Positions 37,032 through 37,594 of a DNA stretch of 54,392 nucleotides are shown here, in pieces. The translations under genes were made by a program, and so were the position numbers. The stretch's first letter is position 1. Each line of letters starts with the position of its first letter. This DNA comes from an uncultured Lachnospiraceae bacterium (GTDB lineage Bacteria; Bacillota; Clostridia; Lachnospirales; Lachnospiraceae), in the NCBI GenBank assembly GCA_934371505.1, contig CAKRNW010000001.1, positions 1 through 54,392 of the forward strand, read 5' to 3'. The notes under the pieces were generated by a model, which made no database searches, was not told the origin of the DNA, and worked only from the letters and a program-made list of their open reading frames with translations.

Positions 37032-37211
37032 CTATCTGGTGGGTTTCATGTCTAAAATGCTCTTTTCCTTGTTCTTCTTTGAGGGATTAATGCTCTTATG
37101 TATCTCGGAAATCTCATGGCACCAACGCCTCCGGCTCCTGTGGTCAAGCTGCATCACATCCTCGCTGCCCCAGTGAAAGTAGTAGGAAATAAACGCCATC
37201 TCCTGATACAT
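37032..37211 (-). CDS. Small (59 aa) ORF in the -1 frame of the upstream chaperone-like gene, absent from the ORF track
   Basis: Translation is MYQEMAFISYYFHWGSEDVMQLDHRSRRRWCHEISEIHKSINPSKKNKEKSILDMKPTR. AAGGA lies 4 nt upstream. The ORF fills the otherwise empty 37020..37231 gap. I have a weak recollection of similar small proteins in other CIS loci. Confidence 0.5.
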   Translation of the reverse strand: MYQEMAFISYYFHWGSEDVMQLDHRSRRRWCHEISEIHKSINPSKKNKEKSILDMKPTR

Positions 37212-37231
37212 CGCATCCTTGGGATAAAGCC

Positions 37232-37594
37232 TTAACCCTCCATAGTAAAATTTACCGGGGTTTCAATGACCTCTCCGCAGTGGGGACATACCACCTTCAT
37301 CGTGGGCGGCTCCACATCGTTGATTTTCTGGTACATATCCTGTAAAAATGCAAGGTCGGCGGTAAATAGCTTTTCGATGACATTGGGGGTAACCATAGTC
37401 AGACCTTCCAGCTCCGTAATCACCTTTCCCAGCACTACGATGGTAAGGTAGGAGGGGTTGCTCAACACTCTGGGGTCTCTGGTGGCACTGATTTCATCCA
37501 CGGCGGTTGCCAGACGCATTTTTCCTCTGCGGTGTACTTCCCCACTTCCATCCACATATCCTTTGGGAAGTGTAAATTCATAAACTGTTTCCAT
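37232..37594 (-). CDS. Tail-assembly-chaperone-like protein (Afp6/P2 gpE position), C-terminal CxxC...
   Basis: 120 aa from ATG 37594 (GGAGGA upstream). It sits directly after the tube gene and has VCPHCGEVIETP near the C-terminus. The family call is positional. Confidence 0.5.
   Translation of the reverse strand: METVYEFTLPKGYVDGSGEVHRRGKMRLATAVDEISATRDPRVLSNPSYLTIVVLGKVITELEGLTMVTPNVIEKLFTADLAFLQDMYQKINDVEPPTMKVVCPHCGEVIETPVNFTMEG
37247..37253 (-). promoter_or_regulatory. Candidate -1 programmed frameshift heptamer A_AAT_TTT
   Basis: In the zero frame the sequence reads GT[A AAT TTT] ACT, which is the X_XXY_YYZ pattern, 5 codons before the stop. The -1 frame is open from here into the 59-aa ORF. 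Confidence 0.4.

Follow-up and report, generated by a model that had tools for sequence, protein, structure and literature searches.

Does an extracellular contractile injection system (eCIS) make two isoforms of its tail assembly chaperone (TAC) by ribosomal frameshifting, in the manner of a long-tailed phage? The question is raised by the genome of an uncultured Lachnospiraceae bacterium (GenBank assembly GCA_934371505.1), in which positions 1 to 54,392 of contig CAKRNW010000001.1 carry such a system. This whole stretch of 54,392 nucleotides (nt) is referred to below as the window. On its minus strand, a chaperone-like open reading frame (ORF) overlaps a second frame that encodes a domain of the Pfam family DUF6760. 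Judged from the sequences, the chaperone gene makes a longer second protein by a -1 slip at the heptamer AAATTTT with a probability of roughly 0.85. The evidence supports a candidate phage TAC frameshift that has been kept in a cellular injection machine and is now annotated as two genes. Frameshifted chaperones of the lambda G/GT and P2 E/E+E' type are already known, and the eCIS case joins that kind. The features on which the argument depends are the following, with lengths in amino acids (aa).

37232 to 37594, minus strand: TAC-like ORF, the short form, 120 aa (stop codon included in the span), with a match to phrog_508 and a predicted TAC fold.
37247 to 37253, minus strand: slippery heptamer A_AAT_TTT in the X_XXY_YYZ phase of the chaperone frame, where GTA AAT TTT encodes V114, N115 and F116.
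37232 to 37262, minus strand: two-frame overlap of 31 nt, in which the zero and -1 frames are both open.
37032 to 37247, minus strand: -1 frame extension, 71 aa followed by TAG, with a YYGG linker and then DUF6760 (PF20546) from LYPKDA onwards.
37032 to 37211, minus strand: 59-aa ORF of gene callers, starting at ATG 37211, which would be an N-terminally truncated DUF6760 without the conserved LYP motif.
37032 to 37594, minus strand: predicted long form, 116 + 71 = 187 aa, assuming a -1 slip after F116; its natural in-frame equivalents are P0260 and P0335.

The slip junction and its conservation

On the minus strand, the last codons of the zero frame are ...CCG GTA AAT TTT ACT ATG GAG GGT TAA, with the TAA at 37234..37232. 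The first-pass annotation of this DNA had placed A_AAT_TTT five codons ahead of the stop as an in-phase slippery heptamer, and the minus-strand reading bears this out. It had also described the -1 frame as open across the heptamer, which is correct, but had put the upstream stop at about 37260, whereas the actual TGA is at 37265..37263. The -1 frame reads ...KFYYGGLRLYPKDAMYQEM...; past this TGA it is open through NPGKFYYGGLRLYPKDAMYQEM... as far as the TAG at 37034..37032. The junction peptide predicted for a -1 slip after F116 is VVCPHCGEVIETPVNFYYGGLR, the same junction as had been given before, with ETPVNF on the upstream side and YYGGLR on the downstream side. Motifs of the type H_HH.U_UU.Y, A_AAU_UUU included, are among the most efficient -1 motifs in E. 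coli (Sharma et al., 2014, PMC4066793).

In the proposed mechanism, most ribosomes would stop at TAA 37232 and yield the 120-aa short form. A minority would stall while tRNA-Asn and tRNA-Phe occupy AAT TTT, then slip one base back onto AAA TTT. The slipped ribosomes would then read the -1 frame to TAG 37032, giving a 187-aa long form whose C-terminal ~65 residues would be the DUF6760 three-helix domain.

The extension is a recognisable member of its family. PF20546, for which the gathering threshold is 27 bits, scores 52.3 bits with the 59-aa ORF and 56.4-56.7 bits when the -1 frame residues are added. The match starts at the L of LYPKDA, six residues upstream of the sole ATG, and all 32 aligned relatives match the same family. 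The model of the extension is a small three-helix domain with a predicted local distance difference test (pLDDT) score of 78; a Foldseek comparison of this model with BFVD returned nothing significant.

The arrangement was sampled in two ways. When 200 genomes of the same family were searched for DUF6760 in six frames, it turned up in 17 further genera. In all 18 of these loci, the window counted, DUF6760 is in the -1 frame with an overlap of 31-43 nt, and AAATTTT is in phase (18/18). The codon ahead of AAT TTT is GTA, ATA or CTA, such that the residue varies and the third base is always A. The second sampling was independent and proceeded from the chaperone only. It yielded 80 Clostridia loci at 55-88% identity, 79 of which have their DUF6760 in the -1 frame. 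The -1 offset of the downstream ORF recurs in all 98 related loci that were read. In every relative the -1 frame opens ahead of the heptamer, and most have an overlap of 28-43 nt.

The first-pass annotation had singled out the heptamer and the -1 overlap as features to look for in related loci, and both are conserved. Pooling the two samplings gave 96 distinct junction sequences. An in-phase X_XXY_YYZ heptamer occurs within the last 15 codons in 94 of them, compared with ~6% expected, although these loci share descent and the counts therefore overstate the number of independent observations, which tells against the frameshift to that extent. The expectation was taken from the background elsewhere in the same chaperone genes (45 of 10,146 codon sites or 0.44%, which corresponds to ~6% per 15 codons). 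Among the 80 AAATTTT junctions, T+AAATTTT is invariant (80/80), and the adjacent third positions have an entropy of 1.7-1.9 bits. A clade nested among the AAATTTT lineages reads GAT TTT TTA/G, or T_TTT_TTR, one codon downstream, and a small clade uses T_TTG_GGG as its heptamer. L070 (G_AAT_TTT) and L092 (GAT TTT CTG), which alone lack a canonical heptamer, retain an in-phase T_TTT. As read from these junctions, the relatives share a slippery site in the correct phase, whichever heptamer provides it.

Conservation also extends beyond the heptamer. Past the zero-frame stop, variation among the relatives has the codon periodicity of the -1 frame, with wobble positions of ~1.8 bits at L, Y and P, and the stretch is therefore translated. 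For 77 of 93 loci, the sequence from the slip site to the near-invariant YP motif lacks ATG, GTG and TTG altogether, and the first start codon in those loci lies 2-26 codons within the DUF6760 domain. On the sequence of most loci, translation of DUF6760 can arrive only from upstream.

Two candidate stimulators of the slip were rejected. Pairing of GGG...CCC into a hairpin in some loci is accounted for by Gly and Pro codons. Likewise, the Shine-Dalgarno-like GAGG found 7 nt ahead of the heptamer in ~70-75% of relatives, where the window has GAAA, is explained by Glu-Val codons.

Several individual loci depart from the common pattern or carry unexpected labels. In a Lachnospiraceae metagenome-assembled genome (L063:2842-2900), AAATTTT is in phase and the -1 frame ends after 17 codons (YGREINLYDTNELYKAM*); probably either the copy is decaying or the assembly contains an error. 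Loci from Anaerotruncus (L083) and Flavonifractor (L086) have, at ~2851-3177, a 45-residue insert between T_TTT_TTG and DUF6760 and an ATG just ahead of the domain, and this lineage may be moving towards independent translation. Two loci labelled Bacteroidales / Bacteroides (L033 and L046) are near-identical to Lachnospiraceae loci, L033 resembling L014. Their labels more likely reflect mis-binned contigs than transfer between phyla.

Competing explanations and distant lineages

Of the alternatives to a frameshift, the one that survives best is that the chaperone and DUF6760 are two independent genes. DUF6760 would then be translated from ATG 37211 as a 59-aa protein, and the heptamer would merely reflect the residues V/I/L-N-F. 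The window contains the necessary ATG with a weak Shine-Dalgarno-like AAGGA 4 nt upstream of it. Moreover, the exact 59-aa ORF is called on 176 public contigs, and hence is not unannotated as had been thought at first; the few named members of its cluster are 'hypothetical protein'. However, translation from 37211 would drop the near-invariant LYP motif, the codon at this position is Leu rather than Met in most relatives, and the 77 loci described above have no start ahead of the motif at all. The AAGGA is there because of the K-D codons of the DUF6760 domain. In addition, conservation of residues does not explain why the third bases of xxA AAT TTT are invariant, or why some clades have swapped to other slippery heptamers. 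Independent translation is thus an unlikely account of the Clostridia loci, although it finds some support in distant lineages, two of which (L181 and L185) have DUF6760 with its own start. Seven more distant lineages were sampled through representative chaperones, as follows.

L183 and L187: DUF6760 in the -1 frame after G_GGA_AAC / G_GGA_AAA.
L184: in-frame fusion of chaperone and DUF6760.
L185: DUF6760 with its own ATG, plus only a G-run.
L181:2203-2972 (metagenome, actinobacterial-type): DUF6760 with its own ATG two bases past the stop, still in the -1 frame, with no heptamer.
L180 and L186: a different small ORF downstream in place of DUF6760.

The case against the frameshift rests in part on these lineages. 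The arrangement is not universal among the seven, as the four loci L180, L181, L185 and L186 illustrate, and within the window itself a separate 59-aa product may be made from ATG 37211 with its AAGGA. Furthermore, RNAalifold on 25 sequences did not find a conserved stimulatory structure 3' of the heptamer (consensus energy ~0, no compensatory pairs), and folds of single sequences over the 60 nt 3' of the heptamer averaged a z of only -0.76. With no conserved stimulatory structure in the clade, the efficiency of the slip may be low. An obvious stimulator is reportedly also missing at many phage G/GT sites.

The chaperone homologue of L181 differs in further respects. It has no CxxC hairpin, and past ...VNFGT... 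it carries a 100-aa acidic tail ending in RRRGGAIIEEV.

The in-frame fusions are examples of the joined product. P0260, a protein of 167 aa encoded on contig L184 between two tube genes, contains the chaperone domain and DUF6760 in one frame. P0335, which is 81% identical to it, has the same composition and is encoded on a 9.3-Mb Candidatus Uabimicrobium contig, where the NCBI annotation is DUF6760 family protein. The joined protein therefore exists in nature.

A second alternative is termination followed by reinitiation, in which ribosomes would restart at a non-canonical ATA, CTA or TTA overlapping the stop (..GGG ATA A..) and produce a free, full-length DUF6760. A minority of relatives (L003, L008, L030, L035, L042 and L043) have ATGA, TTGA or GTGATG at that spot, and the Pfam profile begins about three residues ahead of LYP, as such a product might. 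However, the window has TTA at this place and many relatives have ATA or CTA, all of them poor or non-functional starts. Reinitiation also leaves unexplained the in-phase heptamer, the -1 frame that is open from the heptamer on and the in-frame fusions, and it is very improbable as the general route to DUF6760.

Finally, an assembly indel, a pseudogenised fusion or transcriptional instead of ribosomal slippage, to which the in-frame fused versions in other genomes and the truncated DUF6760 frame of L063 might seem to point, can be dismissed as hardly credible: the same two-frame layout recurs in 96 distinct junctions from independent assemblies, complete genomes included, three A and four T make runs too short for a polymerase to slip on efficiently (PMC4066793; PMC5009743), and the strict conservation of codon phase points to the ribosome.

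Relation to the frameshifted chaperones of phages

A programmed -1 slip of the phage type presupposes that the upstream ORF is a TAC, and this identification is supported by profile and by the modelled fold. The ORF matches PHROG 508, 'tail assembly chaperone', with an E-value of 8.5e-7 in a profile search. Its homologues number over a thousand; some close ones are named 'phage tail assembly protein' by NCBI, and some carry the JGI name 'phage FluMu protein gp41'. The likely start is ATG 37594, which is preferred because nearly all listed homologues are 120 aa in length; an in-frame ATG further upstream, at 37633, would give 133 aa. The protein consists of a TAC-fold core (residues 1-99) followed by a C-terminal CxxC beta-hairpin.

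The AlphaFold2 model of the chaperone, built with 32 homologues in the alignment, has a pLDDT of 91.7. When it was compared with 48,161 representative solved chains by VIA-align, the best match was 3klu, YqbN of B. subtilis (Z 6.8, root-mean-square deviation (rmsd) 4.7, 90 aligned), and the second was 2ob9, the HK97 tail assembly chaperone (Z 6.2, rmsd 3.3, 84 aligned). The third and fourth were 3fgx (Z 5.6) and 5ir0 (Z 4.5), after which there is a gap to an unrelated row at Z 3.1; the Z values of these matches are moderate. Among viral models in BFVD, T4-like baseplate-hub assembly proteins rank first (E 3.6e-7 to 1e-3, TMq 0.60-0.67), and FS-gp41 of Mu appears as a weak match at rank 22 (TMq 0.52, E 0.018). 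Foldseek against the PDB gave no match at E <= 0.001.

The chaperone has no tblastn match in 50,697 phage records and no match at E up to 1 to Pfam Phage_TAC_7 (PF10109), the family of P2 gpE and Mu gp41, which P2 gpE itself does match. Comparison of the chaperone alignment with P2 gpE by hhalign gave a probability of 0.1%, that is, no sequence match.

Tandem versions of the chaperone also occur. In P0124, P0336 and P0337 (211-244 aa), the TAC core is present twice within one protein.

The closest known parallel is phage P2, and the comparison requires the genes on either side of the chaperone.

38283 to 40013, minus strand: sheath protein (PF04984, PF17482).
37739 to 38239, minus strand: inner tube protein of the T4 gp19 / CIS1-CIS5 type, directly upstream of the chaperone (PF06841, E 1.7e-32; TIGR02241, CIS5_fam, CIS1_fam).
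35142 to 37019, minus strand: next downstream gene, 625 aa, with a tube-like N-terminal domain and ~450 aa without a family.

In P2 (GenBank AF063097), gpE and gpE+E' arise by a -1 frameshift at T_TTT_TTG within the tail operon FI-FII-E/E'-T-U-D. Both systems have a contractile tail, and the order sheath-tube-chaperone in the window equals FI-FII-E/E', in keeping with the earlier claim that the chaperone is placed directly after sheath and tube as in P2. In both, a short ORF stops a few codons past an in-phase heptamer and is followed by a small -1 extension, and a sub-clade of the relatives has T_TTT_TTG/A, the P2 heptamer being one of these. Annotation has treated the two alike as well, with E' listed apart as a small 'GpE family phage tail protein' just as DUF6760 is listed apart here. 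The differences are that the chaperone of the window has an extra CxxC hairpin and no sequence match to gpE / Phage_TAC_7, that the system is a cellular injection machine without head genes, and that the gene downstream is the 625-aa protein with its tube-like N-terminus, not a recognisable tape measure.

The extensions themselves may be related. The P2 E' extension, translated from the annotated frameshift site, matches Pfam Phage_P2_GpE (PF06528). A DUF6760 profile of 32 sequences aligned by hhalign with the single P2 E' sequence over 28 columns (probability 51%, E 1.6e-4), and with a 16-sequence E' alignment, which drew on 15 Enterobacterales GpE proteins, over 29 columns (probability 76%, E 2.2e-5). 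The common pattern is MAxxxxxFHW, then W sixteen residues later. By hmmscan against PF06528, the protein of the window has no match, and two of the 32 DUF6760 members do, with a best E-value of 0.023 that falls short of the cut-off. Homology of DUF6760 to the P2 E' domain is therefore likely from these alignments, though not established.

Lambda provides the model for what the two isoforms might do. The -1 frameshift of lambda G/GT and of other long-tailed phage chaperones is well described (Levin, 1993; Xu, Hendrix and Duda, 2004, 2013, 2014; reviewed in PMC5009743). As with gpG and gpGT, the eCIS gene would make two products by a low-level -1 slip near its 3' end. It also lies after the tube gene, and its product is predicted to have the TAC fold, the HK97 protein being its second-best solved match. 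In contrast, the lambda tail is non-contractile, the lambda heptamer is G_GGA_AAG, and there is no detectable sequence similarity. In the lambda model, the part shared by both products attaches to the tape measure, and the extension to the tube protein (PMC5009743). By analogy with this model and with P2 E/E+E', the common chaperone part in the eCIS would coat the tape measure or a tube-initiating complex, and the DUF6760 part would recruit another tail component, most likely the tube subunit. The efficiency of the slip would set a low, fixed ratio of long to short form, and the finished particle would hold neither. Roles of the two forms like those in lambda and P2 are thus inferred by analogy.

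Two further comparisons are with proteins of Mu and of T4-like phages. Mu gp41 and FS-gp41 (gp42) represent a myophage chaperone with a frameshift product and are among the structural matches; however, the match is weak, and the protein of the window does not match Phage_TAC_7. The T4-like 'baseplate hub assembly' proteins, which head the viral structural matches, have lengths of ~250-270 aa. The T4 proteins have reportedly been proposed to be TACs that are made by a mechanism other than frameshifting.

Overall, the reading of the junction put forward in the first-pass annotation, a -1 frameshift in the style of gpG/GT or P2 E/E', is supported by the -1 frame, the conserved heptamers, the TAC fold, the scarcity of start codons and the alignment with E', and it probably describes how this chaperone gene is expressed.

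The eCIS locus and the meaning of the frameshift

On its gene content, the locus is an eCIS of the Afp/PVC-like kind. The set found comprises the sheath, a gp19-type tube, two CIS_tube proteins, a TssE/gp25-like protein, two Baseplate_J proteins, a P2_I-like protein, a VgrG-related spike in two ORFs and a DUF4280 PAAR-like protein, together with two further components.

41225 to 41950: Pvc16_N/DUF4255 cap, the equivalent of Afp16 (PF14065, E 8.7e-26).
13949 to 16264: AAA+ ATPase, the equivalent of Afp15 (PF00004), ~6 kb past the last baseplate gene with unrelated genes between.

Capsid, portal, terminase and integrase were not found by Pfam in the window, where the minus-strand ORFs of ~130 aa and more and two plus-strand ORFs were scanned. 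Downstream of the chaperone, residues 39-171 of the 625-aa protein have weak matches to PF06841, TIGR02241 and CIS5, and the protein also matches the tail tube family phrog_4542. It may be a tube-adaptor fusion or a length-determining protein. The 688-aa ORF at 33033..35099 (minus strand) has no family match. Either this ORF or the 625-aa one may be the tape measure, and neither matched tape-measure families in profile searches.

Other parts of the locus deserve mention. A VgrG-related spike is split over two minus-strand ORFs, 29150-29968 and 29986-31188, in different frames and 17 nt apart, which match positions 218-347 and 366-536 of NF033848. This may represent a spike of two proteins, like T4 gp27/gp5, or else a broken gene. 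A 2000-aa ORF at 7118-13120 (minus strand) has no Pfam match and adjoins a GNAT acetyltransferase and the AAA ATPase; it may be cargo that the system delivers. The stretch that separates the AAA ATPase from the last baseplate gene (16729-22526, minus strand) encodes an MFS transporter, a D-Ala-D-Ala ligase, a Cache/HAMP/SpoIIE sensor phosphatase and an ABC ATPase, and a second HAMP/SpoIIE protein is encoded at 4254-5906.

A literature search found no paper mentioning DUF6760, and none in which contractile injection systems (CIS) are linked to frameshifting, to slippery sites or to their own tail assembly chaperones; subscription papers lay outside the search, so an earlier description is possible. 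A chaperone frameshift is mentioned neither in the AlgoCIS structure paper nor in a 2025 census of CIS.

The frameshift would correct the annotation of a widespread gene pair and give the uncharacterised Pfam family DUF6760 a concrete role. Programmed frameshifts known from prokaryotic cellular genes are few, and many chromosomal cases would be added to them. There is a practical side as well, as eCIS particles are under development for programmable protein delivery. A frameshift product that is hidden from annotation and may be required for assembly matters for their cloning and for their expression in foreign hosts, and codon optimisation would destroy AAATTTT.

The balance tips slightly towards a broader proposal, in which -1 frameshifting would be ancestral and required for eCIS assembly in many bacterial lineages, apparently a halophile-type one among them. 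DUF6760 would then be a homologue of E' that tethers tube subunits to the chaperone-coated tape measure, with the slip rate setting the stoichiometry for tube polymerisation. If this is true, heterologous expression or engineering of such systems would fail or lead to mis-assembly unless the recoding signal is kept, and eCIS loci would be one of the largest classes of recoded cellular prokaryotic genes, that is, of genes belonging neither to viruses nor to insertion sequences.

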